Positions 7,532 through 63,992 of a stretch of 64,000 bases of DNA are shown in pieces. The notes under the pieces were generated by a model, which worked only from the letters and a program-made list of their open reading frames with translations, searched no databases and was not told where the DNA came from. A program made the translations under genes and the position numbers. The stretch comes from a virus, in the IMG/VR virus record IMGVR_UViG_3300029922_000014, positions 86,437-150,436 of that record, one strand, 5' to 3'. Position 1 is the first letter of the stretch. Each line of letters begins with the position of its first letter.

Positions 7532-8722
7532 GGGTGCAGCCCTTGGGTGTTGAGCGCTTTGATGCGCGCTTCTTTTTCAAAGCGCTGCTTCGTTTCGATG
7601 TCGCGATAGTTCCAGCGCGGCGCGATGGTGCCATCCGGCCGCAGCCGAAACTCATCCACTGACCACCACGTCAGCGAACCGACGACGGCCCAGCGTTCGT
7701 GTGCCCAGCGCATGCTGTCACCGACGAGGTCAACATAGGTGATGATGAAGCCGCGGTGGCGCGGGAGCGGAACGTAGTTGGGCGAGAGGAAGATGGATGC
7801 TGGCGGATCGGGACGGCGGTCTTTGATCAGCAGACCTTCAGCGATCCAGCGCCAGCCCAGTTCGGTCAGGTGCTTCGGCGCTTGGCCCTCCCAGCGTAGT
7901 CCTTCCGGGCTGTTCCACAGCCAGTCCCAGGCTTCGCGGTCATCCGTGGCAACCGCGTCGATGAGCATGGCGCCCATGTCCTGCGCGCTGTGCCGGTAAC
8001 GGTCGCAACTGAACTCGAACACTTCGCCTCGGTCGAGGTCTGCGAGACTGCGAGCGTCGGTCATTGGAGCTTCCCGTCGACGACATGCGCGCAGACGTGC
8101 GTCTCGTACGAGGGGATGTATGCCGGGCAGGTTGGGCAACGAACCACCGGGGTGATGCGGATGGCGCCGGTGAACCCAAGAGGAGGGTTGTCGATGAGGG
8201 CATGAGCCTCCTTATGGCTTACCGCCATGTCCCACAACCCTTGGCCTTTAATCCAAGCCACTTCGGTGGTGTTGCGAACAAGCCCCTCAACGCGGTACAT
8301 CTCTTCGCGCTTGGGCTCCGTAGTGGCTTCCATACGTGCCACCGCAGCCAGCCCTGCGTCCAGTTCTGGCTGGGTCGGGCGGCCGAGCGTGTGCAGGACC
8401 TTGCGGATGATGTCGGCGTCGGTCATGACGCAAACTCCCCGCGCCACGCTTCGTCGCGGTCAGTGTATGGATCCGGTTCAACGCTGATGATGCGGCAGCC
8501 ACAGAAGCGCATGGGCTTTCCATCCACAATCGCTTCGTAGTCGAACTTGTCAGCGTCAGGAGCAGCTGCCAGTACGGCAGCAAGCTGTCGGCGCCATTGT
8601 TCTAACAACGCAGACACGCTGGTATCAATGTGCTGTTCAATCATATCATTTCTCGCGTAGTGCACGATATGGACCGGAACGAACTGTCAACGACCAGTGA
8701 AAGAACTTCGCCCGCTGCATGT

Positions 8723-8928
8723 TGTTTCCCGCGTCATGCGACGACATGGACAGGATTCCTGCGCGTGGATGTACATAGCGCACTATGCGTTATTTCTCCC
8801 CTGGACAATATTCCTGTTTCCCGCGTCATGCGACGACATGGACAGGATTCCTGCGCGCGTGTTTTCATAGCGCATGACGCGACATTCTGCACCTGGATAT
8901 AATTCCTATTTACCGCGCTATGCGGTAA
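8723..8928. repeat. Intergenic ~92-bp tandem duplication carrying five Box B palindromes
   Basis: tgtttcccgcgtcatgcgacgacatggacaggattcctgcgcg at 8723 and 8815; Box B at 8729, 8778, 8821, 8870, 8913. Confidence 0.85.
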
Positions 8929-10049
8929 TGGCGAGCACGAAGAGGGAAGGCTTAACCGATATCCAGGTGCGTCCGTAGTCGTCACCTGATTGACATCGTG
9001 TCAGTTGCCTGCATGCCCGAGAGTGCCGTCAGCCGCAGGCGGAGCCCAGTGACAGAACCCACAAATCTTGTTTCCGTCATCCAGCTTCGCGGCGACTGGC
9101 CAACCCCCCATCGCTTTGATGGCACTGTTCAGTAGTCCGAGAGCAGACAGGGAGTCGTTGCCGGTTCCGCTGATCAGTTCGGGATCGGAGCCCAGCACGG
9201 TGCCGATGGTAACGCGGTTGCGGACCACGGCACCAAAGCCGTCAGGATCGAGGGGGAGGAGGCGATTGAAGAGGTCGATCACCGGCTGCGAGATGCCCTT
9301 GGCGGTGCGATCGGTGAGGTCTTTGTCTTCGTGCATGGGATGTCCTTCAGGATTGATTCGGCAATAGATTGAGCGACGTGGGCAACGTAGTGTGCGTCCT
9401 GATGCTGGAAGATGTAGTCCGCGAAGTCTTTGAGTTCATCGGATGGGGTCGAAGCCGGAAGCCAGTTCATCACCTGTTCGACGCGGTAGCCTTCGACCGT
9501 GTTCCAGGCGTCGAGGAGCGCTTGGGCCTCTTTGCGGCTGTGGACGTTGTAGGGCTGGTGGGTTTGTTCGACGGCCTTGAGATAGTCGTCGCGGGTGATG
9601 GTCATGGTGTCCTACCTTTGGCGTTCTTGTGCTTGACGCAGTTCCACCATCCAACCGACTTGCAGCGCCGACAGTCGTCAGGCGGAAGGATCTTGCGGCA
9701 GGCGGTGGCGTACTTCTCCGCTTCCTTTTGCGCCTTCGCCCGATCGGGGCGGGGCTTGGCCTTGTGGATGGTGCTTCCTGTCAGTTGCTTGGGCATCTTC
9801 GCATTCCAGACCTTGACCAGGACGGTGTCCCGGCGCTTGGTCAGTCTGCGGATGAGCTTGGTCAGTTGATGGGCCTTCTTGGCTTGCGCCTGCCATGCTT
9901 CGTAGTCGCAGGGGCGCACCCGGGTCATGGCAGAGAGTTGCCGGGCGATGGTCCCACGAATGGTGTGCATGCGGGCATGAATGCCCTTCAGGTCTGCATT
10001 GGCTGAGTCGATCTGCTGCTTCAAGACGGACGGGGTGAGGTTCACGGGG

Positions 10050-10349
10050 TCACGCCTTGCCGTTGCAGGTCTTGCACGGGCGTTGGTGTGGCTCCAGGCG
10101 GTATTGAAATGGGTCAATGCCCGTTCCGATACAGTCCTTGCACACGCCGGCCAGGGCTGGCTTTCCAGTCTCGGCCTCAACAGCCTCTTGATGAGACTTG
10201 AGCACTGGGGTGTTGTCAGCGGTCAGGCGGCGGCCTCGGCCGAGGCAAGCGTCACAGCGGGTCATACTTCCATGCCCGGTGTCGATGTACGCTTTGCCTT
10301 GGCAGGCGGTGCACTTCGCTTTGTAGTCGATGGTGTTGCCGGCCAGCAT
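10050..10349 (-). CDS. DnaJ-type CxxCxGxG zinc-finger protein
   Basis: CTACQGKA, CDACLGRG, CKDCIGTG, CKTCNGKA. Confidence 0.7.
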   Translation of the reverse strand: MLAGNTIDYKAKCTACQGKAYIDTGHGSMTRCDACLGRGRRLTADNTPVLKSHQEAVEAETGKPALAGVCKDCIGTGIDPFQYRLEPHQRPCKTCNGKA

Positions 10350-10750
10350 ATCCCCGGCGATGAGCATGAGCGCCAACAATTGCTGATCAGTCAGGCGGTC
10401 AAAGTGCGGGGCGTCATGGGATTGTTCATGCGTTGGCCTTGAGGAGGTTGTCCATGTCGGCCAGGAAGTTGGCTTCCGTGATGTAGCCGTAGAGTGGTTT
10501 GGCGCCTGGGGTAACGATGGCGGCGCCTTTCATCTCTTCCTGCGTGCCCCAGATAAGATCCCCTCCGAATGTTTCGATCAGGATGATCGGTTCTTTGCCG
10601 CCGGTGATCAGGAGAATGGAATGGGCGTGGGCTCTGATCGACTTGAACAGGATCTCCTGAAGGTCGGGCAGGTCGCTGAGCGAAGCAGAGGCGGCTTCGA
10701 GTTCTTCAAAGGGAGGGAGCGTCACGTCAGGTCATCCAATTGACACGGTG

Positions 10751-11140
10751 TCAGTCCGTGTAGCAGGCATGATGGGCGGTTCCGGGTTGCCGGTCCTCGT
10801 TGTGAGGCTCCACAGAGGCGCTGGAAGGCTGTTGTACGGACTTTCCTGTCTTCTTGGCCACGCGGGGAGGGTCTGACTGTTTCATAGCCTTTGCGGGGCT
10901 TGCAGCAGGTTCTTTGGAATCAGCCGAAACGGCATAAGGGGCGGGCTTGTTGATGGGCATCCAGGCAGTTATTGACCGCGCAAGCTTGCAAACGATACGA
11001 GGACCGCCCACGGTGAGGAAGAGCGGGTGTAAAGCATGGAACGTCGCCCACTCCACACACCCGTTACGCGTGATCCAGCACTCCTGCCCATCGTCAGGCA
11101 GCCGTTCCGCAATCGGGATCCAGAGTTCGGTGGTGCTCAT
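10751..11140 (-). CDS. DUF551-like phage protein
   Basis: WIPIAERLPDDGQECWI ... ITAWMPINKP. Confidence 0.7.
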   Translation of the reverse strand: MSTTELWIPIAERLPDDGQECWITRNGCVEWATFHALHPLFLTVGGPRIVCKLARSITAWMPINKPAPYAVSADSKEPAASPAKAMKQSDPPRVAKKTGKSVQQPSSASVEPHNEDRQPGTAHHACYTD

Positions 11141-11223
11141 GGCTGTGAGGAAGAGCGTACCAGATCGAATGGCGCGTCAACCAGTATTTTCCGCATCATG
11201 CCGGAAGTATGTTCAGAATCCAA

Positions 11224-11390
11224 AGTCGGAATCAGGCACGGCGCTGTTGTCCTAAGTTCACGTATTCACCGTGCAAATAGGTTCCTGCTTCACAGACGGT
11301 AGTTTCGTCCCGGTCTTACGACCAGGGCCAGAGCTTCCATCTCCACAGGCGTTTATTCCCGCGCAACTCGCGGTATGGATATTTTTTGCG
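11224..11390 (-). ncRNA. Putative TnpB omega-RNA scaffold plus 3' guide
   Basis: Overlaps the tnpB 3' end (aacgcctgtggaga...gtgaagcaggaa...ggacaacag), the usual location. Boundaries are inferred. Confidence 0.55.
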
Positions 11391-12451
11391 GCATTCAGAT
11401 CACGGTCGAGCGTGAAGCCACATGCAGTACAGGAAAAGACCCGCTCTGCGAGCGGAAGGGAATCTTTCTTGTGACCACAGCTTGAACAGGTCTTTGACGA
11501 AGGAAACCAGCGGTCGACGACAAACACCGATTGCGCTTTGTATTCCAGTTGACGTCGAATCTCACTGAATCCCACGTCATTCAAGGCGCGTGAAAGATGG
11601 CGGTTTGCCATCATGCCTTTCACGTTGAGGTCTTCGAGACCGACAGAACCATACTGCTTGGCTATCGCCGTAGTGGTCTTGTGCTGCCAGTCTTTTCTGA
11701 TTTGAGCTATCCGCCAATGCTGACGACTGAGACGAGCAACGGCTTTCTTCCGGTTGCTGGATCCTTTGACTTTGCGAGAGACGAAACGAGAGAGACGCTT
11801 CAAACGTTCGAGAGCAGACTTGAGCGGTTTGGGAGACTGAAAGGTAGTGCCGTCGGAGAGAACCAGAGCAGTCTTCAATCCGAGGTCGATGCCGACAGCG
11901 GGCTTTGACACGATGTCAGTTGGCGGATCGGGAAGTTCGACTTGAACGGAAAGCCACCAGCGTTGACCGACAAAAGACAAAACAGCGGAGAGTGGTTTGC
12001 CGTCGAAGCGGAGTTCTTCGTGGGTATCAACCCAACCAATATTCGGTAGTTTAACAGCTTTACCGGCGAACGAAAATGTTCCAGGTCCGTTGTCGAGACG
12101 TGCTGATTGCTTGGATTTATGTTTGCTCTTGAAGTCGGGCGGGGACATCTTTGGTCCCTTGCGCTTGCCTGAGCAGGAGTCGAAAAAGTTTTGGTAGGCG
12201 GTGCCGAGGTTGATGATCGCCTGCTGAACAACGCGCTTTGGCACATCCAACATCCAAGGGAACTCTTCACGCTTGATCGTATTCAAACTCTTCCGCAACG
12301 ATCCGTCGTTCGGCTTGTACCCAGCGGCAAACTGAGCACGCCAGTGACATAATGCCCAGTTAAAGGCAAAGCGCGCCGCTCCGACGCACTGCCGGAAGAA
12401 TGCTTCCTGCTTTCGCGTGGGGGCAAGCTTGATGATGTGGGCGCGGATCAC
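11258..12451 (-). mobile_element. tnpB: TnpB RNA-guided endonuclease, solo element with no TnpA in the window
   Basis: N-term HIIKLAPTRKQEAFF..CVGAARFAFN; RuvC-I GIDLG; RuvC-II LEDL; CSSC/CTAC zinc finger; RuvC-III DRDLNAAKNI. Confidence 0.95.
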
Positions 12452-12489
12452 TGCACACACAATAACAAAAAACACAGGCGTGGCCAGTA

Positions 12490-12540
12490 TCAGGTATTTC
12501 CTGGCGGATTGATCGGATCAAGTGGTATGGGGAGCTTCGG
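12490..12540. repeat. Diverged copy of the 3' end of the LamG gene (partner at 15972-16022)
   Basis: 38-bp identical core ggcggattgatcggatcaagtggtatggggagcttcgg. Confidence 0.9.
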
Positions 12541-13253
12541 CGTCCCATCCGTAGTGGTCCTGGCCCCGGATGATCTTCCATCCGCGTTCACGTGCATAGG
12601 CGGACTTGAAGCGGCGCGCGGCGACGCGGGTAAAGAAACTGCCACCGACGCAGTGGGCTGCCTGGATTCGGAGCGGCTTGGCCTTGGGGTCTTTGACGTC
12701 CTGGTGGACGGTGTAGTAGCCGTCGCCTGACACTTGCGGCTTCTGGTCGAGGTCGGCAGTCACCCTGCGGACGTGCAGGCTGGTCGATTCCTTCTTGTCT
12801 TCCTTCGGGTCGGTGTTGTGAACGATCCAGCGGTATGGCGCGGGGTAAGTCATTGGTCAATGAGTCCAGAGAGGCGGATGCCTGATTATCAGAACAGGTC
12901 GGTTTGAGGAACAGCGTCGTCGTCTGACCCCTCCACCTCCACAGGTTCAGGTGCACGGACCGCTTGCATGGCTTCGTAGGCGTTGGCGGGTCTATTCTGT
13001 TTTCTGATCTCGTCGCGCTTGGCGCTGACTTGCGCCAGGACCGCGGCCGGCAGGCGTTCGAGCAGGATGCGTTTGTAGTAGATACTCACGAGCGCCTTGG
13101 ACTGCTTCTCGCTCCACTCTTCGACGTTCCCAGTTCCGAGTGAACAGAGATTGGCGATAAGGTCCGACTCGAATGGGGTGAGCTTGGCGAAGTTGTCAGG
13201 CGCGGTGAGGGAATGGAGCATTCCTACGGACTGGGCGGGGGTCAGGCGCATGT

Positions 13254-13607
13254 TCAATCCTTAACCGTGATGGTCATGTGCCGTCGGCCCCACTGCACAG
13301 CTTCGGCGTGGGTTTTGAATCTGAGGTCGATGTGAACGATTCCGCGCTTGGCATCCTTGCGCATGGCGCCGCCGGTATCATCGACCTTTGCCCAATTGCC
13401 GTTGTTGTAACCGGTGACTTTGATCAGGGTTCCGTAGGGCAGGATGGTCGGGGCTGCGGCGATGCCGGTGGGATGATCGTCGGTATCGACATCGGTTGAG
13501 GTGATGCCGGAGAAGTCTGAACCACAGTAGCCGGTGACGATCGCCTGGAGTTCGACGGCTGGGGCGGTGGCGCACAGGACGAGCAGAGCGACGAGCTTGA
13601 TTGACAC
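13254..13607 (-). CDS. 3D-domain (MltA-like) secreted cell-wall enzyme
   Basis: Signal peptide; VTGYC, GIAAAPTILPYGT, VDDTGGA, HIDLRF, AVQWGRR; GTG start lies within Box A. Confidence 0.85.
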   Translation of the reverse strand: MSIKLVALLVLCATAPAVELQAIVTGYCGSDFSGITSTDVDTDDHPTGIAAAPTILPYGTLIKVTGYNNGNWAKVDDTGGAMRKDAKRGIVHIDLRFKTHAEAVQWGRRHMTITVKD

Positions 13608-14107
13608 GATGTCAGTCCTTCCCGAATCCGCCGGGCTTGTACGCGGCGAGGTTCTTGAAGTGTTCGAGCTTCGGGCTCGTGCCGTGGTTAACGCGGACCA
13701 GCCGGCAGAGTTGCTTCACGTCGCGGCCGGTGGCGCGGGGGAAGGCTTCGACCAGGGACAGCACCGTCGCCTTGGTGAGCTTCATTCCGTAGTGGGTGCT
13801 CAGGATCGACCAGAGGTCTTCCTTGTCCTTGGCGCTATCCGGGACGCCATAGCTGACTTCCGCGATGCAGCGGCTTCGGATGGCGTCGTCGACATCGTCC
13901 CCGCGGACTCTTTTCGTAGTGGTCGTGCGCCACCTGCTTGAGGCAGAGCAGGTCCTTCTTGGTGAACAGCCGGGAGTCGAACGATTTGGGCTCGCCGTCG
14001 TTGTAGTTCCAGCCCCACTGGTCAGGGGGATCCATGAACTTGGGGCGGGAATACTGCGCGATGTAGGATTCCGCGATGGCTTTGGTGATGAACAGTTGCA
14101 TGGGTTC

Positions 14108-15091
14108 TCAGAGTTCGCAGGCGTAGTGGGTGAGCAGGGGCTTCCAGGAATCGAAGTCGTTCGGGCAGTTGGTCGCGAGGTTCTTCAGCACACGGACCGT
14201 GGCGCGGTTGAGGAAGATCACCCGCGGGTTGTTGACCCCACCGCCAACGTAGTTGCTTTCGATGCGGAAAGGGCAGTCGAACCCCCTTGTCATCAGCGCC
14301 GCGTGGATGTCCGAGCGAGCACGAACATAGGTTGCGGTCGTTGCCGACAGGCCAGTGAAGTTATCCAATACCGCTTCGACAGCGTCGCTGGCTTCCTTCG
14401 TGACGTCCTCGAACGACGTCAGGTTTCTGATCCGGTTCATCCGATCCTGGTGAAGGTCTTCGTCGTCGCCCGGGAATGACAGCTTCCCGATAAACGTGAC
14501 GCCGTCGCTATTGTCGCTGTCGCTCATTCCGTCGCTCATGGCATTCTCCGGTTTGTCGGTCGGTTAGTGGTGGGAGTTGGCAACGCCGAGCGCGGCCTTC
14601 GCCATCACAGACGACAGGTAGTCGATCTCGCCTTGGGAGAGCTTGCCGAGACCGTAGCCGTAGGAGGAGAGCATGGCGGCGATACGGGCTTTCGCTTCAG
14701 CCGGCGCGTCCTCGTATTGCAGCGGGTTGTCCTTGGCGCCGATGCTCGCGAGCTTCAGGCCCAATGCCCGGAGGTAGGTCACCGCCTTTTCCTCGCCGTA
14801 GGCGTGAATGTAGGTCTTGTCCTTGGTCACGTCGTCTTCGGTGAGGATCGCACGCACCGGCGTGTCGCTCCAGTCGATATCGATCACGCGCTTGCGCCAG
14901 CCGAGTTCGATCAAGCCCCACGGGGTCTTCACGAGCCACCAGGGGCTGCGGTGCCGGTAGACGGCTTCCTTGAGGATGTCGGCGTCGGATTCACCGTCGC
15001 GGGTCGTGATGTAGCCGTTGGGCAACCGCCAATGCTTGGTCACGGGGATACCGGCGAGGGTGAAGATGCCGAGGAGGGTGAGTTCGTTCAT
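14108..15091 (-). other. Two hypothetical genes (14108-14539, 14564-15091)
   Basis: Collinear ORFs downstream of the cassette at 15199-15284. Confidence 0.6.
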
Positions 15092-15198
15092 GTGCTTTTC
15101 TAGGGCTGGTGCATGGCGCGGCGGGCGATGGCGAGGCTGCGCAGGCAGATGGCGTCGGTGATCTGAGCGTTCATGGCGATGGTCATGGGAGACTCCTT

Positions 15199-15284
15199 GG
15201 TCCTTTGGACCGCTGGTTGGTTGTTGTACCCGCATCATGGTGCGGACTGACATCGTGTCAATTGCTGTTTTCCGCGTTATGCGG
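15199..15284 (-). promoter_or_regulatory. Promoter cassette: Box B, -35/Box A, -10, Box C, RBS
   Basis: Box C 15199, -10 CATGAT 15234-15239, Box A 15248, Box B 15272. Confidence 0.8.
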
Positions 15285-15615
15285 AACTTCCGCTGGGATG
15301 ACCGGAACGTTCGCCAGGATTTCGGCCTTGCGCAGCACAATGGCTTCCGCTTCCTGTTCGATGGTGTCGGTGATCAGCTTGGCGAGGTCCTGGAGGGTGT
15401 TGACCTTGACCGTGCGACGGTCGAGCGCCTTGATCAGCTTGGACACGACGGTTTCGCGCAGAAGCAAGCCACGATGCCCGGCACGCAGGGCGGGTTCGGT
15501 GGCGGCTTTGGCGCTGGTATATAATCACCGCCGGTGGGCTTGATCGCGTGCAGGGCGTTGCGGAACTTGTCCTGGACGGTGATCGGAGTCTTGTGCATGG
15601 CCATTGGATGCTCCT

Positions 15616-15696
15616 GGTCCATTGGACCGTTGGCGTTATGGCTGCATCCTGACATGGATTGACACGATGTCAATCGAGACTTTCCGCGTAACGCGC
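15616..15696 (-). promoter_or_regulatory. Promoter cassette (B-A-C)
   Basis: Box C 15616, -10 CAGGAT 15646-15651, Box A 15660, Box B 15684. Confidence 0.8.
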
Positions 15697-15784
15697 GTTT
15701 TCCGTGCCTTGAGCACCTTGGCGTACGCAGGACAGAGGTCGGATACAATCGAGCCTGGAAACGCCTTACAGGTGCCAGTAAACG

Positions 15785-15935
15785 GCAAACCCGACCCCAA
15801 CAAGGGATCGGGTCTGGCGTGTTCGCCCGCGGTGCACTTTCACAGGGGAGGGGGGAACTCCAGCCGAAAAGATCAACGCGCTGCCCAAAGGAAGGAGTGC
15901 ACGGGGGGACGTGCGGGCAGTGGCAGAACGGTAAG
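15785..15935 (-). ncRNA. Candidate structured small RNA with C-rich/anti-SD single-stranded segments
   Basis: TTGACA 15968-15963 and CAAGAT upstream; CUGCCC/GGGCAG and GCACG/CGUGC stems; terminator-like hairpin 15789-15813; no convincing ORF. Confidence 0.5.
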
Positions 15936-15971
15936 CGCGCATCTTGCGCACTACGCAGAGTCTGTCAACGG

Positions 15972-16721
15972 TCAGGTGTGGCCGGGCGGATTGATCGGAT
16001 CAAGTGGTATGGGGAGCTTCGGAGGGCGCAGGATTATACTCCCGTAGTTCGGTCCTGGACCGTTACCAGTCTGCAAAAGGATCGTCGATGCGGCCATGTG
16101 CCGACCGTTGCCGCTGTGGTCGGTGAGGTCGCGGGCGGTGGGTAGTGGCCAATAGGCGTATGGACTGCCAATGATGGGCGGGTTCGAGTTGGCTTCCGCA
16201 ACCAATTGGGTCGGGGTCATGGCGACCTGCCAAATCTTGACCGATTCGAGACTACCGACGAACTGCGCATGTGCGGTCGACGAGAACAACACGATGCGAT
16301 CGAACGGGAAGCGGTTGCGGACATCCAGAAGCTGCAAGCTCAATTGCCCGTCGAAGTAGTAACTGCTGAGGGAACCATCGGAGATGAACCCCCAGTGATG
16401 CCAGCGTGTGTCGAGGCTTGGCCACTGCCCCGTAGTCTGGATGCGGTCACCGACAAAGAGTTCAGGAGTCAGGCCGGATTCATCGGATCCCAGGTACAGT
16501 GACTCGGGGCCGCCTTCCGTGCAAATGGCGATGGCGGCGGCGCGCGCGTTGGTGGGCTTCTCCCAACGCACCCACATGGACACTGTCAGAGGTCCGGTCC
16601 CTGGCCCTGCCTGCGGTGACGCGAAAACGCCGCCATAAGGCCATTCCAGGTGGCACTCCCGGAAGATCGCGTTGCCGATCCCCGGGCCGTAACCGATGAC
16701 TGCGATGGTCGTGACGCTCAC
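15972..16721 (-). CDS. LamG/concanavalin A-like jellyroll domain protein
   Basis: LTVSMWVRW, RWHHWGF, YYFDGQL, FVGSLESVKIWQVAMTPTQL, LTDHSGNGRH. Confidence 0.8.
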   Translation of the reverse strand: MSVTTIAVIGYGPGIGNAIFRECHLEWPYGGVFASPQAGPGTGPLTVSMWVRWEKPTNARAAAIAICTEGGPESLYLGSDESGLTPELFVGDRIQTTGQWPSLDTRWHHWGFISDGSLSSYYFDGQLSLQLLDVRNRFPFDRIVLFSSTAHAQFVGSLESVKIWQVAMTPTQLVAEANSNPPIIGSPYAYWPLPTARDLTDHSGNGRHMAASTILLQTGNGPGPNYGSIILRPPKLPIPLDPINPPGHT

Positions 16722-19700
16722 TTCTTGCCCATGGTCCCAAGCGACGTCTTCATGCCGGTATGGTGTTCGATGGTGCGGTGCAGGTCGTCGGCGTAGACGC
16801 CGTCCGCGGAATGCTTCACGGTGTACTTGCCGCCGCTGATCTTGCCAAAGTCCACCTTGTAGGTGTCGTCGGGCTTGAGGTGCACCTTGATGTGGTTGAC
16901 GTTCTTGGCGTTCTTGCCGATCTTGAACTGGTAGGATGGCATGCCGGTGCCGGGAACGTGGGTCTCCTTGCCGTCCTCACCTTTGGTAGTGTAGCCCTGC
17001 CCGTGGTCGACCATCATGTTCTTGGCGCCGAGCATGAAGTGCGCCTTGGCACCGATCTGCTTGTGGATCGCGTGCGCCTTCTCCAGGCCTTCCTTGGCGG
17101 CCTTCTCGTTGATGGCTTCGGTAAGGGATTCTTCCTTCTTGCCGAAACCGGGGGCGGCGCGGACGCCGTGCTTCTCGCGAACCTTGGCTCGGGCTTCCGG
17201 GTCCTGCTTGTGGCCCATGTGCCCCTTGTCGGGCGTGCTGCCGCCCCACTTGCCGCTGTTGATGTTCTTGAGGATGTCGGAGTACTTGATCTCCATCTTC
17301 CCCGGCTTGTGGCCATCCTTGATCGCGTAGGTAGAGACGACGAGCGTCGCGCGGTCCTTATCCAGGTCGCGGGACTTGATCGTCCACCAGACGTTCTTGA
17401 TGACTACGGACTTGTTCGGAACGAAGTACTTCCGCAGGTCCTTGTCGTTGAGTTTGCCTTCGGTCAGCGATTCGTTGTGCAGGTGGATGTGGACGTGCTT
17501 GGCCTTGTCCTCGGGGCCTTCGTCTTCGTCGTCGTCGTCTTCATCACCCTTGCTGTTGGCACCGCCTTCCTCTTCTTCTTCGTCCTCTTCGTCGGGAACG
17601 TCGTCGGTACCGGTAGCGCCGGGAGCCGGCGGCGGGACAACGGTCGGGTTGGGCAGTTCGTTGGCGCCCTGCGCACCAGCACGGGTCATCATCTGTTCGC
17701 CCATCTTCGGGACGGAGATGTAGCCGGTGGGGCTGGCCTTCCATTCGTTGGGCTTGAGCCCAAAGCGCTCTTCGATGCGGACTTCCATCGCGTCGATGTC
17801 GCAGTCGGCGCACAGGAGCATATCGTAGTAGGTCTGAACGTCGGCCACGGTGAAGTTCTTGGGATCGACACCCTCCGCCAGGATCTTGGCCTTCGCGTCG
17901 TCGAGCCGCGTCTTGGCTTCCGTGGTCAGGTTCTTGGACAGCCCAACATACAGCTTCAGCCGCGCGGCGGCGGTCTTGGCGTTGGGTGACGATTCCAGGA
18001 GCCCCTTGGCGATCGACGCGGCAGAGCCCTCAAAGAAGTTCTCCGGCGGGGTCCAAGATTCGCCCAGTTGGACGAAGTTCTTGCCCTTCATCGCCTGCAT
18101 CGCGTTGCCCTTGGTCGTGGCGCGCACGCAGGAGACAACCAATTGCCCGTCGGCGTCCATGGTCTGCTGCATCAGCGATTCGGCTTGATCCATGGTCAGA
18201 GCGTTGTTGTTCACCAATTCCCAGCCGTCCTTGGTCTTCTGGCAGATCCAGTAGTCGCAGGAGGCTTTGCCAGCGGCTTCGGTAGTGGCCTTCTTCGCGA
18301 AGCCATGCTCATCGTGGTGGACCTTGTCGAACGTCTTGGCCCGGAGCTTCCCCATGGCTTCGCTGTGATCCTTGGCCTTGATGTATGCGGCGAAGTGCGG
18401 CTTACCGTGAGGGTAGGTCTTCTCGTTGTTTGGACCGGTGTGCGGCGTCAGCGCGTTGTCGATCGTGCGCTCCAATTCGCCCTTGGTCTTCTTGCCCTGG
18501 CCCAGAATGGGCTCATGCATCGTGGTGCCCTTGGCGCCCCGACCGATCACAGGGTAGTGCATGGTTTCGTCGATTGACGCGATGTCAGTGGCCTCAGTGA
18601 TGCTCTTCACATGGACGCGGGAATCGTTGTGGACCGGATCATGCGACTGCACCGACGTCGCAAACATCTCGGCGTGTTTCTTCGCACCGAACTTGAAGGC
18701 GTGATGCTGTTCCTTCGTGTCGCCGCGCGTGCTGGTTCCAACATGCTCACCGGACCGATGACCCATGGCACCGGCGGCCTTCTTCAAATGATCGACCGTG
18801 AACGGCTTGCCCGACGAATGCTTGGCACTGTGGGCCACCAGCACGTAGTGAGCTTCGTCGATGCCTTCGTTGCGGCGCTTGAGCATGTTGCGGGCGGTGC
18901 CGCGCTTGCGCTTGCCGAGCATGCCGTACTTGGACGGGAAGCTGGCACGGACGGGAGCGAAGGAGGCAGAGGCGAATCCGCCTACGGTGCCGGAGCGGGT
19001 CATCTCGTCGATGTAGTCGAGGAATGATCCGGGAAGCTCCACCTCTGCGCCCTCAGCATTGAGGAAGATCAGGTCACCGTTGACGTCTTCCGACATGGAA
19101 CAGGTGTCGCCGGCCGGGGAGATGACGGTCACACCTTCGGTGCCGATGACAAGCTTCCAGGTCTGGTCTGATTCGACGGATTCCTTGACGGAAAAGTCGC
19201 CCATCAGAAAGTTCATGATGTCGACGTGGGCGGCGGTCGAATCGCCATTGTGCTTGGTCAGGATCTTGTCGATCCCACTACGGTAGAGAACCATGTCGCC
19301 TTCGTCGACGTAGCGGAACACATTCTCGTCATCGCGGATGGTCACGGAGACGACGCCGGGTTCGATCTCGACTACTTCCCAGGCCGGCTGCTCCAGCGAT
19401 TCGCGGACCTTGGTCGCGGCGTCAGCGGGCTGTTCGTCGGCGTTGGGGTCCTTGATCTTCTTCGGCGGGACGGGCTGCTTGCCGAGCGGGGTACATTCGA
19501 TGATCGACACATCGGAGACGCGGTCGTTGGCGATGTCGGTGGTGCCGGCGGTCAGGGACAGCTTGTATTTGAGGAACTGTGCTTCCCCCAGCTTGCCGGT
19601 GTCGTCGCGGGTCAGGGCGCCCTCGAAGATGGCGGTGAAGCTCTTGGGGCCGACTACGGTCTCGACGAGCTTCGCGTAGAGCGAGGCGGATTCCTGCATC

Positions 19701-19936: not shown

Positions 19937-20003
19937 GCCCCGAAACGTAGTGGAGGCGTACGAGCGGGGAAGGCAGAAACAACGAACCTCGGGAACCTCA
20001 GGA

Positions 20004-21525: not shown

Positions 21526-21604
21526 GGTCCGGGGGACCGTTGGGGTATGGCTGCATCATGGCGGGATTGACACGATGTCAATCGCTGTTTTCCGCGTCAT
21601 GCGG
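21526..21604 (-). promoter_or_regulatory. Promoter cassette (B-A-C) driving the ARH gene
   Basis: Box C 21526, CATGAT 21555-21560, Box A 21568, Box B 21592. Confidence 0.8.
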
Positions 21605-25008: not shown

Positions 25009-25020
25009 GGGAGGCTCCTT

Positions 25021-26497: not shown

Positions 26498-26509
26498 TTT
26501 TGACTCCTT

Positions 26510-52180: not shown

Positions 52181-52189
52181 CAGGTGCGT

Positions 52190-53257: not shown

Positions 53258-53405
53258 GATGTTTTCCTTGCAGCCCGGGTACAGGGTTTGGTTTGGTCCC
53301 GGTTGGTTACTGCGCCGTCAAGGTTACGAAGGGTTTTTCCCCATTGCAAGCTGTTTTTTCCGCGTCATGCGGGAAGTTCCGTGTGGGAACTGACACGATG
53401 TCAGT

Positions 53406-55876: not shown

Positions 55877-55877
55877 G

Positions 55878-56786
55878 TCACCACGTGATGCCGAGGTCGA
55901 TTGAAGGGGTTGCCATCAGACGCGCCGAACGCGGAGACAGATCCTTCAACAGGTTTGCGAACTGTTTGTCGTCCCAGGTCTTAAACCCGATGAGCGCAGG
56001 AAACATGGGATTATATCCAGAAGCAACAGCAACGGCAGCACGAAGACGTGCAAGGTGCGCCACGTGTCCGATGGTCGGGTAGGTCTGACGCAGGCGTTCG
56101 AGGAGCCGGTTCGCCGCCACGTTCCGCGGTCCGAAAATGGCTTGGTATTCATCGGAATGGTCAGCATAGACCGCCAGTGGTTGACCATCACCATCGGTCA
56201 CGGAGCGACACAGCAGCCACAGCCGCTCCTCTTCCTCCTCCGCCATGCGATTGACGAGTCGGTCGAGTTCGGTGTTGCCGAGGTTGCGCCCGTCGGGATA
56301 GGCGAAGGTCCGCTGGCAAGTCAGCAGGTAGGACTGCCAGCGTCCGATCGCCGCCTTCTCCACGAGCACGATGGTCTGGAAGTCCGAAAACCTCCCCACT
56401 TCCTGGGATTGGATGTACGTGCGCCTTGCGTGCATCTGCACGGCGATCCACGCCACCGGTGACGCCCCGTATTTCGTGCACATGCGGGAGACCGTGGCGA
56501 GGGCATCATGTTCGGTGACCGGTTCGCAGCGGTCGTATCCGAAAATCTCCCGATGGAGTTGGTGATAGACCTGATGCAAATCGTCGTTGTCGGACGGCCA
56601 GACGAAGACCTTGGCTTCCTGCTCTGCAAGCATTTCTGACAGGCTTTTTCGATTCGTCCAGGTCTCCTGGATTTTCGCACACAGCACCCGGGCATGACAA
56701 CGATCGCAGGCGTCTGGGGCGTTTCCAGAGCCGTAGCAGGCCGGACGTCCGCGAGGGACGGGTGCTGGTTGGCGGTCAATTGACAT
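55878..56786 (-). CDS. Hypothetical protein with N-terminal Cys cluster; ATG lies within Box A
   Basis: PACYG...CDRCHARVLC; start ATG 56786 coupled to the helicase stop. Confidence 0.6.
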   Translation of the reverse strand: MSIDRQPAPVPRGRPACYGSGNAPDACDRCHARVLCAKIQETWTNRKSLSEMLAEQEAKVFVWPSDNDDLHQVYHQLHREIFGYDRCEPVTEHDALATVSRMCTKYGASPVAWIAVQMHARRTYIQSQEVGRFSDFQTIVLVEKAAIGRWQSYLLTCQRTFAYPDGRNLGNTELDRLVNRMAEEEEERLWLLCRSVTDGDGQPLAVYADHSDEYQAIFGPRNVAANRLLERLRQTYPTIGHVAHLARLRAAVAVASGYNPMFPALIGFKTWDDKQFANLLKDLSPRSARLMATPSIDLGITW

Positions 56787-56790
56787 CGTG

Positions 56791-58572
56791 TCAGTCCTTG
56801 CGGGAACGCGAACGACGGCGCCGGTTGTCATCATGAAGCTTTTGCATCGCATCCTCCCAACGCAGAAACGGCCACAGCAGCGAATCCCGATTCTCAGGGA
56901 CCGCGGGCCAAGCGTAGAGCGGAAACACCTCATACCCTTCGCCCTCATACACACGGACCCGATCCAGTCCGTGCTGTGTCAAGGTCTCGTGCGAGGTGGG
57001 GATGATGTCCACGACCCACACTTCGTTGTCGCCGTCTTTCTTGCGTCTCGTACCGCGGCCGACGCGTTGAATCGCGTTGGTGTTGACGCTGACGCCTTCG
57101 GCCATGACCAGTGCTTCGATGCCTTCAACATCAGAGCCTTCGTCCAGGACGTTGTTCGCGATCAAGCACTTCGCCTTGCGTTCGGTGAAAGCCTTCTTGG
57201 CAGCCTCGCGATCCTCCTGTTTCGTCGCACCCCAGATCGCCACGGTGCTGATGCCTTGCGCCTCGGCCATGTCCTTCAACCGCTTCCACTGCTCTTTCTT
57301 GCGGGTGAACACCACGGTGCGCTTGCCATGATCGGTCAGCCACGCCACCACCCGGATCACCGCCCGGTTGTGGTAGTCGTTCTCCACGATCCCGAGGCGG
57401 TATGCGTCGGCATACGGCAGGTCGATCTCCTTGGTGAAGGAACGCTTCCCGATGAAGTATTCCTTCTGGCCTTTCGGAAGCGTCGGACCACTGACAGCGT
57501 CGGAAAGGATCGCAATGATCTTGGGCTTCGCCGCTGCACCGATTTCGATCAGTTCGTTCAGTTCAACGTTGCTGATGATGTCACCGGTAGCACCCATCAT
57601 GGTGGTGTCGTCGATCGCAGATTCTTTCAGAGGCGAACCACTGAACCCGAACCTGCGAATAGCTTTTGAGCGCAGACAAAACTCGGACCATGACTCCGAA
57701 CTGGCGTGATGTACTTCATCAAGAGCGAGAACTTGCCGCGTTTCCATCAATTGACGGATCACGGGATCGTACGGCACTTGTTCTATCCGCGTCCGCGTCA
57801 TTGGCTTGCCATCCGGACGTAGCACGGGTTTGCCGTTCGCCCCTTTGAGCGGTTCGCGAACCTTCTTCTCGCGGTCCTGAAATTGGATCAACGTCTGCGC
57901 GGTGACGATCGTGATGTCACCCATCTCCCGATTCTTGACACCATTTTTCTTCTGGCCGCCGCCGCAGATCCCGACGGTTGGCTCCGTTTCACTGATAAAG
58001 TATTTTGCGCAGCGCGCAGCAAACTGATGGACCAGATCAGCCTTGGGAACGACGACCAGTGTCTGCCATCCTAATTCCTCCCACAGGTACTTCGCAGCCA
58101 CGATGGCACATTCCGTTTTGCCGGCGCCTGTACTGGCCTTAACGATCCCACGTTGATTGGTCAGAATCGCCCGGATGGCATCCATCTGATCGGGGCGCAG
58201 GGTGATACCCGGCAGGTATTGATCCGTCAGCCGGGAAAGATCGACCTGATGGAAGTCCCCGAGTTCCTGCACGGTGACGGGCACAGCGCAGTTCGAGTAG
58301 TAACGCGTGACGCGGCTGACGAGTCCAGCAGGAAAGGTGAAGATACTCGGATCGCGACGGTCTTTACGATAAAAGCGGTGGAATCCATCCCAGCGCCCTT
58401 CCTTGAACGCCGGAGAAAAAAAGTGATTCGGGTGGATGATGCGGAGACATTCGTCGAGGTCAGCCTGGAGCGCACCACGGATTCGTGCGTATGCGCCATC
58501 AACAACGATGGAAATATCACTGCGAATTGCAGTAGTAGAATCCCGTACTTCGTTGCTATTTGCAGTATTCAT
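56791..58572 (-). CDS. SF2 DNA helicase (UvsW-like)
   Basis: WDG, LRPDQ, STGAGKT, DEVHH, SGSP, QRVGRGTR. Confidence 0.9.
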   Translation of the reverse strand: MNTANSNEVRDSTTAIRSDISIVVDGAYARIRGALQADLDECLRIIHPNHFFSPAFKEGRWDGFHRFYRKDRRDPSIFTFPAGLVSRVTRYYSNCAVPVTVQELGDFHQVDLSRLTDQYLPGITLRPDQMDAIRAILTNQRGIVKASTGAGKTECAIVAAKYLWEELGWQTLVVVPKADLVHQFAARCAKYFISETEPTVGICGGGQKKNGVKNREMGDITIVTAQTLIQFQDREKKVREPLKGANGKPVLRPDGKPMTRTRIEQVPYDPVIRQLMETRQVLALDEVHHASSESWSEFCLRSKAIRRFGFSGSPLKESAIDDTTMMGATGDIISNVELNELIEIGAAAKPKIIAILSDAVSGPTLPKGQKEYFIGKRSFTKEIDLPYADAYRLGIVENDYHNRAVIRVVAWLTDHGKRTVVFTRKKEQWKRLKDMAEAQGISTVAIWGATKQEDREAAKKAFTERKAKCLIANNVLDEGSDVEGIEALVMAEGVSVNTNAIQRVGRGTRRKKDGDNEVWVVDIIPTSHETLTQHGLDRVRVYEGEGYEVFPLYAWPAVPENRDSLLWPFLRWEDAMQKLHDDNRRRRSRSRKD

Positions 58573-58645
58573 CGGATGGACCGGTGTTTGTAATCACTTC
58601 CGGCCAGTGTCAACATCCGACTTTGTGCGCTATGCAGAAAAGCGG

Positions 58646-59457: not shown

Positions 59458-59763
59458 AGACTACGGGCGGGAAACCGCCGGGGCAAGCTGGACTGACACG
59501 ATGTCAGTTGTCAGGCGCGGTCCTCGCGCGCGCTGTCAGTGCCCGCTGTTCCGCATCCCACAAAGCCATTTGATGCACGATCATCTGTTCACAGTGATCT
59601 GCAATCGCCACGACGGTTTCTGGATCAGTGCTGCCCTCAAGCCGCTGAAGCGCATGCAGCAGACCGCAGGTGCAGATGTGACCAAGCGCATACACGTGGC
59701 AGTCCCCGTCGTGGGTTGGCCCAGTAGTCTTGCGATACCAGCGTGTGAGGTCGTCGATCAAGA

Positions 59764-60960: not shown

Positions 60961-60971
60961 CAGAGGGCGGC

Positions 60972-62723
60972 TCATGACTCGAAGTACCGCCGGATGTACC
61001 CCCGCTTGTCGATCGCGGAGATGTACCCGCACATGATCTGGAGACGCATCTTTTCCCTCCGCCGCCGGGCTTCGATGTTCTCGACCGGGATCATCTCGGT
61101 GATGGCCCCGGCGAAGAACTCCGGCTTGACCTTGGTCGTCTTGCCGCGGAAGACCGCACCCAGTTCCAAGATGCCCGCGTCGCGCAGCGTCTTGAGCGCC
61201 GAACTGACCGCGGTCTGGCTCAGGCTGCATGCCAGCCCCAGCGCGTCACGATCGACCAGGAAGTCGACGATGCGCGGACGCTCGCCAGCCTGAACGCCTT
61301 CAGCACCGATCACCACAGGCGCGACGGCTTCAGCGTCATAGCGCGCGCAGAGGTTGGTCAGCACCGCCATCTTGCTTTCGCTGAGTTCCGCCTGGGCCAA
61401 GGCGAGCTTGCCCTTGTCACCGACGAAGGACACGGTCAGGCCGGCATCACAGGCACGGCGTTCGATGATCTGGTAGCTGTCCATGGTGTGCAGGGCGCCG
61501 AGCACCTGTTCCGGCGGCAGTGTCAGGTTCATCGTCCGGGCGATCTCAATCGAGATGGTCTCGCCGGTCAGCGAGATGGTTTCCCCGAACTCATGCACGG
61601 TGGTCAACCATTTCCACACGACCTGGAAGGCGGTGTAGGGCGGGTTGCCGTTGTCGATGAACTTCTGGCGCATGTCGACGGCGTATTCGTCGTGGATCAG
61701 GATCACCGTCGATGGTTTGCCATCGCGCCCCGCCCGCCCGGCCTCCTGGCAATAGTCCTCCAAGCAGCCAGGGATGCCAAAGTGGCAGACGGTCCGGATG
61801 TCGGGGATGTCGATCCCCATGCCGAAAGCATTGGTGGCGACGACGGTGGTGAAGAGACCGCGCTTGAACTTGTCCTGCGTCTCCTCGCGTTCGAGCTTGT
61901 TCATGCCGGCGTGATAGACCCCGACCTTGTGGCGCATCGTGGGGTTCTGGCGGACGATGTCCTCTGCAAGGTTTTCACACTTCTTGCGCGTGCCGCCATA
62001 GATGATGTGTCGGCCTTCGCCGGTGATGTACGACTTGGCGTACCGGGAGAAGTTGTGGTTGGGGTTGCCGTTCCAGACGACGTAGTCGAGGTTCGGCCGG
62101 ACGGGGTCGCCCACCACGCGACGATAATCACCCATGCCGAGCGACTTGACGATGTCGCCTTCGATTTCCTTGGTCGCAGTCGCGGTGACAGCAATAATGC
62201 GGGCGCCCCCTTGAATGGACGCCTTGATCTGGCCGATGCGCATATACGCCGGACGAAAATCATGTCCGTTTCTGGATATGCAGTGAACTTCGTCCACAAC
62301 CAGAAAGTTGATGGGGGTGACGTCGACGGCGTCGCGGAAGCGATGACTGTCCAAACGCTCTGGCGACACGTAGAAGACTTTGTATTCGCCATAGCGGAAG
62401 TTGTTCAGGCGATCTTCGATCTCGGACTCGTCGAGCGAGGAGTTGATGAAGCTCGCCGGAATCTTGCGCTTGTGGCAGTCTTCGACCTGATCCTTCATCA
62501 AGGCGATCAGTGGGCTGACCACGATTGCGGTTCCGGGATAGAGAAGAGCAGCGATCTGGAAGATGGCCGACTTGCCATTCGCGGTCGGCAAGATCGCCAG
62601 GAGGTCAAGTCCTGCGATGATTGCTTCGAGCGATTCTTCCTGCGCTTTTCGGAGCGTGTCGAAGCCCCAGTGTTTTTGGAGCAGCACCAGGGCGTCGTCC
62701 ATGGTTGGTTGATGATCGGTCAT
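60972..62723 (-). CDS. recQ: RecQ-family helicase
   Basis: LQKHWGFDTLRKAQ, PTANGKS, SPLIALMKDQV, VDEVHCIS..GHDFRP.Y, ATNAFGMGID, QEAGRAGRDG. Confidence 0.93.
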   Translation of the reverse strand: MTDHQPTMDDALVLLQKHWGFDTLRKAQEESLEAIIAGLDLLAILPTANGKSAIFQIAALLYPGTAIVVSPLIALMKDQVEDCHKRKIPASFINSSLDESEIEDRLNNFRYGEYKVFYVSPERLDSHRFRDAVDVTPINFLVVDEVHCISRNGHDFRPAYMRIGQIKASIQGGARIIAVTATATKEIEGDIVKSLGMGDYRRVVGDPVRPNLDYVVWNGNPNHNFSRYAKSYITGEGRHIIYGGTRKKCENLAEDIVRQNPTMRHKVGVYHAGMNKLEREETQDKFKRGLFTTVVATNAFGMGIDIPDIRTVCHFGIPGCLEDYCQEAGRAGRDGKPSTVILIHDEYAVDMRQKFIDNGNPPYTAFQVVWKWLTTVHEFGETISLTGETISIEIARTMNLTLPPEQVLGALHTMDSYQIIERRACDAGLTVSFVGDKGKLALAQAELSESKMAVLTNLCARYDAEAVAPVVIGAEGVQAGERPRIVDFLVDRDALGLACSLSQTAVSSALKTLRDAGILELGAVFRGKTTKVKPEFFAGAITEMIPVENIEARRRREKMRLQIMCGYISAIDKRGYIRRYFES

Positions 62724-63039
62724 GACACAGGGTCCTTTGGCTTGTCGCCGTTGGTTGGTTTGGGCTGAGAGTGTATATCCCGCGTCACGCGGACAATCGT
62801 TGTTTTGACGTCAGAAAACGATGCAGTCGCCGCGAAGGCAGCGCCAACCATACCAGGGACCATTGTACCGGCTCATGCGACGCTTACCGCAAGCGCAAAC
62901 TGCCCGCCGCCGTTCACCGTAGCGCGGCTGTTTGTACCTCCGCGGGTTGAAGACCTGGAAGCGGGGCATCCGGTCGACCATCTCTTCGTATTGGCGCAAA
63001 AGGCTGTTCGGGAAAACCGTGTTCATGATTGACGCCGTG

Positions 63040-63702
63040 TCAGTTCGGGGTGCTGAGGATGAGGGTCACGACGCGGTCATATCCCGCTTCGTTGAGGTGG
63101 ATGCCAGCCGGTTGGCTGTATTGCGGATCGCACCAGCCCGACGGCAGCACCACCGCTGGCCATAGGTTGAGCCACTGCGCGTTGCGCCCGTTGGCCACGT
63201 CTTGCAGTTGCGCCGTCAGGGTGCCAAAGTCCGCCGGTCCCAAGTTGTTTCCCGTCGCCCACGGATACTGAGGGGCGAGCGGCATCGGGGACAGGCAGAT
63301 GACCGTCGTTGCGCCCTTTGCGCGTACGGTGTCGATGAGTGTTCCATACTCGGCCATCGTCACATCGCGAGGCGTTCTGGTCTGAAGATCGTTGATTCCG
63401 CACCAAAGGTACACCGTCGGCGGGAGGCTGGGCTGCGCCTGCACGCGAGCAAGGACCATGGCGACGGTATCGCCTCCGACGCCAAGATTCTCTGCCCCTG
63501 GGAGCCACGTTTGCCACGCCCCCAGATAGACATAGCTGTCACCGATGACCGCCTTGGTCGTCGGGTTGGGAACCGAGTCATCGTGAGCGTCATAGGTCGT
63601 CGGGAACGCCGCTGCCCCGGGAGCGTGGTACGGTTCGTGATGGAGTCCACCGTATCCGCAGCCGGCGAGCATGATGATGGCGATGGTGAGGATGAAGCGC
63701 AT
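63040..63702 (-). CDS. SGNH/GDSL hydrolase lipoprotein
   Basis: Lipobox LAGC; GDSY, NLGVGGDT, GIND, GIHLNEAGY. Confidence 0.85.
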   Translation of the reverse strand: MRFILTIAIIMLAGCGYGGLHHEPYHAPGAAAFPTTYDAHDDSVPNPTTKAVIGDSYVYLGAWQTWLPGAENLGVGGDTVAMVLARVQAQPSLPPTVYLWCGINDLQTRTPRDVTMAEYGTLIDTVRAKGATTVICLSPMPLAPQYPWATGNNLGPADFGTLTAQLQDVANGRNAQWLNLWPAVVLPSGWCDPQYSQPAGIHLNEAGYDRVVTLILSTPN

Positions 63703-63913
63703 GGCGTGTTCCTTTGGAACGTCGAGTGGAAGGGGGCTGAAGGGCAGGATCAACGGGCGGTGGCCATTTCCTCTGCACACGCTTCGACGAAGGTCAGGAA
63801 CTCGGGATCGTTCAGGGCGACGAAGGCGACTTCGTATTGCGCGCAGAACTGACGGACCAGGAAACCGATTTCCGCGTTGGTATGGGTCTTGAAGAGGTTC
63901 ATGGCTGACTCCG

Positions 63914-63992
63914 GGTCCGTGGGACCATTGGGGTATGGCGGCCAGCGTACCCGGATTGACACGATGTCAATCCTATTTCCTGCATGACGCGG
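63914..63992 (-). promoter_or_regulatory. Promoter cassette (B-A-C)
   Basis: Box C 63914, TACGCT 63944-63949, Box A 63957, Box B 63980. Confidence 0.8.

Follow-up and report, generated by a model that had tools for sequence, protein, structure and literature searches.

A 64,000-nucleotide stretch of phage DNA, comprising bases 86437-150436 (the last 64 kb) of the 150,436-bp IMG/VR virus record IMGVR_UViG_3300029922_000014 and referred to here as the window, was analysed for promoters on its minus strand, the strand which carries nearly all plausible genes. These appear to be promoters of the sigma-70 type, made up of TTGACA, a 15-bp spacer, TAnnnT and a start about 7 nt further on, and they would form an early and replication-gene regulon of the 150-kb phage. 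Judged from the sequence, both the predicted promoters and the 15-bp rule are real and too regular for chance, and the short spacer, which looks like a selected optimum, is peculiar to this phage among its known relatives. A spacing of 17 +/- 1 bp is among the most constant features of bacterial transcription, and here a regulon of about 21 promoters sits at 15 bp. Such a concerted shift points to a changed reader rather than to changes in single promoters; what changed could be a factor of the phage, the polymerase of an unusual host or the template's state. Positions are those of the window unless given as genome positions, and genes were called by a crude selection of open reading frames (ORFs).

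Spacing of the predicted promoters

Spacers are written N15, N16 or N17 for 15, 16 or 17 bp between the -35 and -10 hexamers. An earlier note on this DNA had listed ten minus-strand sites with a 15-bp spacer (8690, 11180, 21581, 25077, 26566, 27210, 40654, 42996, 62796 and 63970) and three with a 16-bp spacer (15261, 15673 and 15968), and all of them read as described. The minus strand of the window contains 19 TTGACA hexamers, which are followed by YANNNT at N15 in 8 cases, at N16 in 3 and at N17 in none; no TTGACA on the plus strand has YANNNT at N15. The genome-wide spacer distribution, which the note had proposed as a check, bears this out. Fourteen of the 48 TTGACA hexamers on the minus strand of the whole genome are followed by TANNNT at N15 (16 by YANNNT), with no strict TTGACA/TANNNT match on the coding strand at any other spacer from 12 to 21 bp and no strict TTGACA-N15-TANNNT on the plus strand. 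TANNNT occupies 0.33% of positions, so that about 0.16 N15 matches would be expected; in 50 first-order Markov simulations there were 0.56 on average and never more than 2, against the 14 observed. When one mismatch is allowed in the -35, the peak at 15 persists on the coding strand only. Looser hexamers bring the set to about 21 promoters, which depart from the sigma-70 norm of 17 +/- 1 bp: 18 have a 15-bp spacer, 2-3 a 16-bp spacer and a single doubtful one a 17-bp spacer. The note's further observation that no 17-bp arrangement is present at these sites also holds, as in 19 of the 21 promoters the hexamer found at 17 bp is missing either the A of position 2 or the T of position 6.

The hexamers themselves are close to consensus at the -35, where 17 of the 21 are TTGACA and the rest are TTGACG (2), TTGTCC and TTGCAT. 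The -10 hexamers have A at position 2 in 21/21 and T at position 6 in 20/21, with G+C-rich cores (TAYGMT). An A-tract lies just 5' of the -35, at the position expected for a proximal UP subsite. TGn directly upstream of the -10 was found in only 2/21 promoters, which sets them apart from the extended -10 class. The motifs of sigma-32, sigma-S, sigma-28 and Caulobacter sigma-73 were also considered and rejected: the -10 here ends in T, there is no C at -13 and no CCCCAT, and the sigma-73 consensus GCtANAWC ends in C.

Assignment of the N15 hexamer as the -10 is supported by the layout of four promoters (genome positions 73243, 69094, 66499 and 43083), in which the ATG of a long ORF lies exactly 7 nt after the hexamer. 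Four of 21 ATGs would fall at exactly this distance by chance with P ~3e-4. The spacing is the geometry of leaderless mRNAs, and it provides the best evidence available from sequence that the N15 hexamer would be the true -10. One of the four ORFs is a GerE-type gene (see below), and its predicted N-terminus agrees with that ATG. The promoter of this gene, which has no leader, reads TTGCAT-N15-CATAAC, and upstream of it lie Box A and Box U, the two palindromes described in the next section.

Cassette architecture and orthologous promoters

The promoter cassettes share one order, namely Box U, the -35 TTGACA, the 15-bp spacer, the -10 TAYGMT and then either a 5' untranslated region (5'UTR) with a hairpin or a short or absent leader. 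Box U is a palindrome with the core CGCRTnAYGCG, a T-run on its 5' side and an A-run on its 3' side; its centre lies 15-18 nt upstream of the -35, at about -50 from the inferred start. Box A is a 17-bp palindrome, A[T/C]TGACA-N3-TGTCA[A/G]T, whose left arm is the -35 in 13 promoters. Its dyad centre is the second spacer base, not mid-spacer, and Box A spans the whole -35. The genome has 51 exact copies and 56 with one mismatch, where about 4 would be expected, and most copies lie at gene junctions or within genes, without a -10 box. Between Box A and the -10 the sequence differs from cassette to cassette, whereas the length is nearly fixed at 5 nt (11 cassettes) or 6 nt (2 cassettes). Eight N15 promoters (62796, 11180 and 8690 in the window; genome positions 79472, 73243, 69094, 66499 and 43083) have no Box A; their spacers are mutually unrelated, and one of them serves an HNH homing-endonuclease gene. 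Because of these eight, Box A does not set the spacing, and the 15-bp rule is independent of the palindrome over the -35.

The same cassette was looked for in related phages. A terminase profile retrieved 80 IMG/VR loci, and the tally given here covers loci L206-L238 only. TTGACN-Nx-TANNNT on the coding strand of these relatives peaks at 17 bp:

Spacer 12 bp: 2 hits
Spacer 13 bp: 3 hits
Spacer 14 bp: 7 hits
Spacer 15 bp: 2 hits
Spacer 16 bp: 9 hits
Spacer 17 bp: 24 hits
Spacer 18 bp: 8 hits
Spacer 19 bp: 4 hits
Spacer 20 bp: 8 hits
Spacer 21 bp: 3 hits

When a Box U was also demanded, 7 of 9 hits in the relatives were at 17 bp. The same filter was passed by 18 promoters of this phage, of which 16 have a 15-bp and 2 a 16-bp spacer; two further matches with 13 bp are overlapping registers of promoters within this count. 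Several relatives contain a T/A-flanked Box U, TTGACA (sometimes within a Box A-like palindrome) and a -10 at 16-18 bp. Strict counts for individual records were as follows:

This phage, whole record: N15, 14; all others, 0
Relative G006, whole record: N16, 3; N17, 2
Relative G007, whole record: N16, 3; N17, 3
Relative G009, whole record: N17, 7; N16, 2
Relative G011, part of record: N16, 4; N17, 2

Since the relatives have the same cassette at 16-17 bp, the shift is specific to this phage. Moreover, the promoters of five orthologous genes could be compared directly:

ParB-like gene: N15 here; N17 in G006, G007 and G009
Gene starting MIFDKLC: N15 here; N16 in G006
179-amino acid (aa) gene: N15 here; N16 in G006 and N17 in G009
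Helicase gene: N15 here; N16 in G006
Gene at genome 4814-5269: N15 here; N17 in G006

Because all five have 15 bp here and 16-17 bp in the relatives, the whole regulon has shifted in place, which favours a change in the reader over a mere founder effect. Close relatives with the same cassette were not evident, as a pattern scan of IMG/VR gave 104 single matches at chance level, the exception being the one relative G006, and a scan of Joint Genome Institute (JGI) metagenomes gave six unrelated matches. Single-query searches of IMG/VR with the ParB-like and MerR-like proteins also found no close relatives.

The promoters and candidates of the window are listed below, as read from the sequence:

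63944-63970, minus strand: TTGACA-N15-TACGCT; left arm of Box A is the -35; Box U centre 63986; the site at 63970 is within the terminal repeat and corresponds to genome position 97
62770-62796, minus strand: TTGTCC-N15-TACACT; no Box A; Box U copy CCGCGTGACGCGG within the spacer; precedes the helicase gene 60972-62723
58587-58613, minus strand: candidate TTGACA-N15-TACAAA (last base A), absent from the earlier list; Box U centre 58631; ATG of an SNF2-type helicase gene (56791-58572) 14 nt downstream
53321-53349, minus strand: candidate TTGCAA-N17-TAACCT, before gene 52190-53257; Box U centre 53366; the only 17-bp candidate and a possible exception
42970-42996, minus strand: TTGACA-N15-TACAGT; Box A and Box U; before the ParB-like gene
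40628-40654, minus strand: TTGACA-N15-TATCAT; Box A and Box U; leader 15 nt; ortholog in G006 at 16 bp
27184-27210, minus strand: TTGACA-N15-CATGAT; Box A and Box U; before the HNH endonuclease gene 26567-27142
26540-26566, minus strand: TTGACA-N15-TACGCT; Box A and Box U; orthologs N16 in G006 and N17 in G009
25051-25077, minus strand: TTGACA-N15-TATGCT; Box A and Box U; followed by the 5'UTR hairpin and GGAG
21555-21581, minus strand: TTGACA-N15-CATGAT; Box A and Box U; before the ADP-ribosylglycohydrolase gene 20549-21514
15941-15968, minus strand: weak candidate TTGACA-N16-CAAGAT, the weakest of the earlier list; no Box A; degenerate Box U within the spacer
15646-15673, minus strand: TTGACA-N16-CAGGAT; Box A and Box U
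15234-15261, minus strand: TTGACA-N16-CATGAT; Box A and Box U
11154-11180, minus strand: TTGACG-N15-TACGCT; no Box A; Box U centre 11197; leader 13 nt
8664-8690, minus strand: TTGACA-N15-TATCGT; no Box A; 3' of a six-copy Box U array (~8650-8950)

Genes found behind the promoters include those for a helicase, ParB, HNH endonuclease and ADP-ribosylglycohydrolase and many small genes without known function. The conserved block at 8.5-62 kb of the genome has no such promoters except at the HNH insertion, and inspection by eye of the regions upstream of late genes gave no obvious common motif. A promoter-like site off the 15-bp rule, one of few, is the A+T-rich TTGAAA-N16-TACAAT at 22418-22439, upstream of gene 21616-22302 and without a Box U. 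A direct repeat of about 30 nt, CCCATACCACTTGATCCGATCAATCCGCC, occurs at 12501-12532 and 15984-16013, just upstream of a TnpB gene and of the candidate promoter 15968 respectively.

The Box U array at 8650-8950 has its six copies in about 300 bp, and at 8723-8906 a 92-nt segment is duplicated in tandem with 82% identity. Within the array region, at 8782-8808, lies TTGTCC-N15-CATAGT, a second N15 candidate, and both are upstream of promoter 8690 and of a 73-aa gene. From its layout, this region could be a regulatory hub, a set of tandem promoters or an origin. A role for Box U as an intrinsic terminator was ruled out in this phage, where the T-run is 5' and the A-run 3' of the hairpin on both strands; the flanks are reversed in some relatives and are terminator-like there.

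The 5'UTR hairpin, GGTCC-N3-GGACC, has a 5-bp stem and a 3-nt loop and adjoins the ribosome-binding site. The element CCAACGGTCC-N3-GGACC stands directly before GGAG and the ATG at 15183-15217, 25005-25039 and 26494-26528 and in about seven more cassettes; it was not seen in the relatives inspected. Among the non-promoter copies of Box A (2364-63969; for example 10741-10757, 13602-13618, 56781-56797, 59494-59510 and 63030-63046), the C-containing arm ACTGACA faces upstream on the coding strand in about 20 cases against 3, and in about 7 cases the preceding gene ends at the TGA of this arm. The arms are the same in the relatives, with different central triplets, e.g. CAA/TTG in G006.

Phage genome, host lead and candidate regulators

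The genome has direct terminal repeats and a G+C content of about 59%. The phage appears to belong to a large uncultured clade, because it has no near cultured relative and its terminase homologues (36-54% identity) are common in metagenomes, many of them on contigs of 140-157 kb. No near-identical phage was present in the phage collection searched, and the best matches of PolA and terminase to cultured phages reach only about 30% identity. Its products include a 1337-aa family-A DNA polymerase with a uracil-DNA glycosylase (UDG)-like domain at the N-terminus, a Tail_P2_I-like protein, a RecA-like protein, a primase, a DnaB-like helicase, SbcCD-like proteins, ThyX and a flap nuclease. The T4-type portal gene (27741-30812) is split by an intein with a LAGLIDADG-type domain, and inteins also occur in several terminase homologues of relatives. 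The gene at 4854-5342 encodes a Cpn10 (GroES-like) protein whose N-terminus is extended by about 40 aa. Structural and replication genes match six related phage records at 25-63% identity (tblastn). Between genome positions ~62000 and 103000 (window up to ~16700), about 75 consecutive ORFs are without a tblastn match (E <= 1e-5) in these six records, and this early region looks like a fast-evolving host-takeover region.

Neither tRNA genes nor Rfam families were found in the phage, so that these give no clue to the host. The only clue is a stand-alone TnpB gene (11258-12475), whose best relatives are in Competibacteraceae at 52-57% identity. A 94-nt stretch at its 3' end (11282-11375) resembles multi-copy elements in at least 8 of 61 Competibacteraceae genomes (73-84% nucleotide identity); in a class-wide sample of Gammaproteobacteria, 2 of 151 genomes match, both among the same Competibacteraceae genomes. 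A search of the 61 genomes for perfect, spacer-like matches to window bases 1-20000 found none. Competibacteraceae as the host is a weak lead, not proof.

Promoter spacing in this family looks canonical at 17 bp. In three Competibacteraceae genomes the strict pattern was observed 34 times at N17, against 19 in the control, and 18 times at N15, against 46; in 61 genomes, with TANAAT as the -10, the figures were 44 against 25 and 36 against 40 respectively. One N17 promoter is conserved in about 14 of the 61 genomes. A promoter-like sequence whose spacer is 17 bp, TTGACAG-N9-GGGGATCAA-TAGAAT, is conserved across the family, in genomes G001, G024, G028, G033, G052, G059, G063, G064, G066, G068, G070 and others, and is probably a housekeeping promoter.

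Among the readers which the earlier note had put forward was a phage sigma factor. The genome search it called for does not bear this out: the phage has no Sigma70_r2 match, no TIGR02937 match above cut-off and no PF00940 match. A six-frame hidden Markov model (HMM) search of the whole phage found no T7-type polymerase and no type II topoisomerase, and the large proteins without known function have no polymerase-like PHROG or Pfam match. AsiA (PF09010) and MotA (PF09114), the proteins of T4-type appropriation, were likewise without a match at E <= 1 in the whole phage. The sole match resembling sigma region 4 is a 69-aa stand-alone GerE/LuxR helix-turn-helix (HTH) protein, encoded at genome 73000-73209 (L292:1477-1686, minus strand; GerE E = 6.6e-18), and its best PHROG is labelled 'sigma factor'. 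A MerR-type HTH protein of 190-204 aa at genome 63384-63998 (L293:1141-1755, minus strand) matches PF13411 and PF00376 above their cut-offs. Its HTH is closest to CarH/LitR and CueR, its C-terminal part is uncharacterised, and a single-sequence AlphaFold model was poor (mean predicted local distance difference test score 46.8) and was left unused. Two XRE-type proteins are also encoded. The MerR-type and GerE-type genes have no homologue in the six relatives, and the same is true of the whole 62-103 kb early region.

A ParB-like gene with a ParB_N domain (41709-42899, minus strand) stands behind its own Box A promoter. A ParB_N protein together with a palindrome at promoters and at distant sites is the operator layout of the KorB/ParB type, and the ParB-like protein is a candidate binder of Box A. 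Both the gene and Box A-like palindromes are common to the relatives.

Possible readers and known systems

We lean, tentatively, towards a phage-encoded function that enables or helps the host polymerase to work at 15-bp promoters. The reader would be the host RNA polymerase with its primary sigma factor, because the hexamers match its consensus and no sigma factor or polymerase was found in the phage. This polymerase would probably have the usual 17-bp optimum, and the spacing optimum of the regulon would be set in trans. In one form, which is possible though on the unlikely side, a factor would reposition sigma region 4 relative to region 2, much as in sigma appropriation. A fuller version has a phage factor, possibly delivered by the virion, move region 4 about 2 bp nearer to region 2, so that the enzyme would prefer TTGACA-N15-TAnnnT and neglect the 17-bp promoters of the host; stated in such detail, it is a shade less probable. 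In the other form, which we consider distinctly improbable, an activator would act at Box U, the near-universal upstream palindrome. The outcome would be a private promoter class with host-consensus boxes, set apart by spacing alone. Box A would be an addition independent of this, at which the ParB-like protein would most probably act to shut the promoters off.

The sharp N15 optimum, the lack of a sigma, AsiA or MotA match in the phage and the MerR and GerE genes without homologue in the six relatives count in favour of phage-encoded help. The combination of a G+C-rich -10 with a mostly perfect -35 also fits a promoter that needs help. The eight N15 promoters free of Box A, the 16-17 bp of the relatives, the Box U at 18 promoters and the N17 excess of the candidate host family point the same way. 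Several points weigh against it. The main weakness is that there is no separate 17-bp immediate-early class to make the factor first; the factor would have to be injected or the N15 promoters would need basal activity. Relatives with 17-bp spacers have Box U as well, which is thus not tied to the short spacer, and the Competibacteraceae host lead rests on one mobile element. Finally, E. coli consensus promoters still work at 15-19 bp, which makes unaided use possible (PMC8695583).

Such unaided use, by an ordinary host polymerase and with the shortest still-functional spacer retained for regulation, is in our view unlikely. It could operate through short-lived open complexes, which would be easily shut off by ParB-like or other repressors, or through insensitivity to the loss of supercoiling on a relaxed phage genome. 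The commonest spacer in E. coli is 17 nt, and 15-nt spacers are favoured by, or insensitive to, relaxation (PMC9303308); synthetic consensus promoters are strongest at 17 bp, with expression still high at 15-19 bp and a drop below 15 bp (PMC8695583); and KorB and KorA repress near-consensus promoters by exploiting their unstable open complexes (PMC11790492). Box A over the -35 in 13 promoters and the type II topoisomerase not found in the phage also agree with this explanation, under which the first round of transcription needs no unknown factor. However, relatives with the same genome type, ParB and Box A use 16-17 bp, and tolerance alone predicts a spread of spacers, not 14 against 0. Moreover, a G+C-rich -10 should melt poorly on relaxed DNA, and eight N15 promoters are without Box A.

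It is rather improbable that the spacing is a trait of the host, whose polymerase would itself have a 15-bp optimum and whose strongest promoter form the phage would copy. In favour of such a trait, the early promoters of phages commonly imitate the consensus of their host, and here the optimum is sharp, a 17-bp early class is absent, and the relatives may infect other hosts. Against this, we know of no bacterial lineage whose -35/-10 promoters prefer 15 bp, and the Competibacteraceae counts favour N17 over N15, although that host assignment is weak.

A founder effect, in which all cassettes were copied from one ancestral 15-bp cassette and the spacing has no functional meaning, is very unlikely. 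The 13 Box A cassettes are indeed alike over about 60-100 nt, but the eight promoters with unrelated spacers are also N15, the orthologous promoters of the relatives at N16-17 speak for a change in place, and the stretch between Box A and the -10 has kept its length and not its sequence. Still harder to credit is a reader outside the sigma-70 family, i.e. a phage polymerase or a very divergent sigma factor that recognises the conserved boxes: several phage proteins exceed 1000 aa and lack an assigned function, but the hexamers are those of the primary-sigma consensus, with invariant A-11 and T-7, and the profile searches gave no Sigma70_r2, TIGR02937 or T7-type polymerase match and, for sigma region 4, only the 69-aa GerE/LuxR HTH. 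We give next to no credence to a MerR-like correction, proposed in the earlier note, whereby a dimer on Box A would distort the DNA and realign the under-spaced boxes, for which the MerR-family protein and the overlap of Box A with the spacer in 13 promoters might speak, since the relatives combine Box A with 16-17 bp, the N15 promoters lacking Box A, the location of most of its 51 copies elsewhere and its centre at spacer base 2 lend no support, and the known mechanism makes 19-20-bp spacers effectively shorter and so acts in the wrong direction (PMC8113463).

Should a phage factor be responsible, it would be a new viral way of separating a phage's own transcription from that of its host, and would serve in building orthogonal promoters; should it be the host, its lineage would be the first to show an optimum of 15 bp. 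The question is experimentally tractable, because a single cassette can be compared directly in its N15 and N17 variants.

Compared with canonical sigma-70 promoters (TTGACA-N17-TATAAT), those described here are alike in their mostly perfect TTGACA, the TAnnnT, the A-tract and a sense orientation before genes, and their start would likewise lie about 7 nt downstream. They differ in the spacer of 15 bp (rarely 16), where the relatives keep 16-17 bp, and in the G+C-rich TAYGMT.

The middle promoters of T4 depend on sigma appropriation by AsiA together with MotA, the MotA box being centred near -30. The host -10 is kept in both systems and an upstream element lies nearer than a normal -35, with the hexamer here at about -33 to -28. 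However, the element near -30 is here the host consensus TTGACA and not a MotA box (TGCTT core), no AsiA or MotA homologue was found in the phage, and no separate canonical early class is evident. In Thermus phage P23-45, gp39 displaces sigma region 4 and abolishes use of the -35 in favour of extended -10 promoters. This is a precedent for a small phage protein that alters the geometry of sigma regions 2 and 4 and switches promoter class; unlike in P23-45, the -35 is retained here and moved 2 bp closer, and a gp39 homologue, for which no search was made, did not come to light.

MerR-dependent promoters resemble the present ones in having mis-spaced boxes and a palindrome touching the spacer, and the phage encodes a MerR-type HTH protein. 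However, MerR regulators activate promoters with 19-20-bp spacers, and the spacers of 15-16 bp here are too short, not too long (PMC8113463). Furthermore, the Box A dyad is at spacer base 2 and covers the -35, and Box A is missing from eight promoters and abundant elsewhere.

The promoter PkorA of plasmid RK2 (PMC11790492) offers a parallel for a possible regulation through Box A. In both cases a ParB-family gene stands behind its own target promoter, a palindrome of operator type is placed on or beside the -35 with many further sites at a distance, and near-consensus boxes are combined with a built-in kinetic weakness. PkorA differs in having a 17-bp spacer, with its weakness in the discriminator, whereas the putative operator of the phage overlaps the -35 itself.

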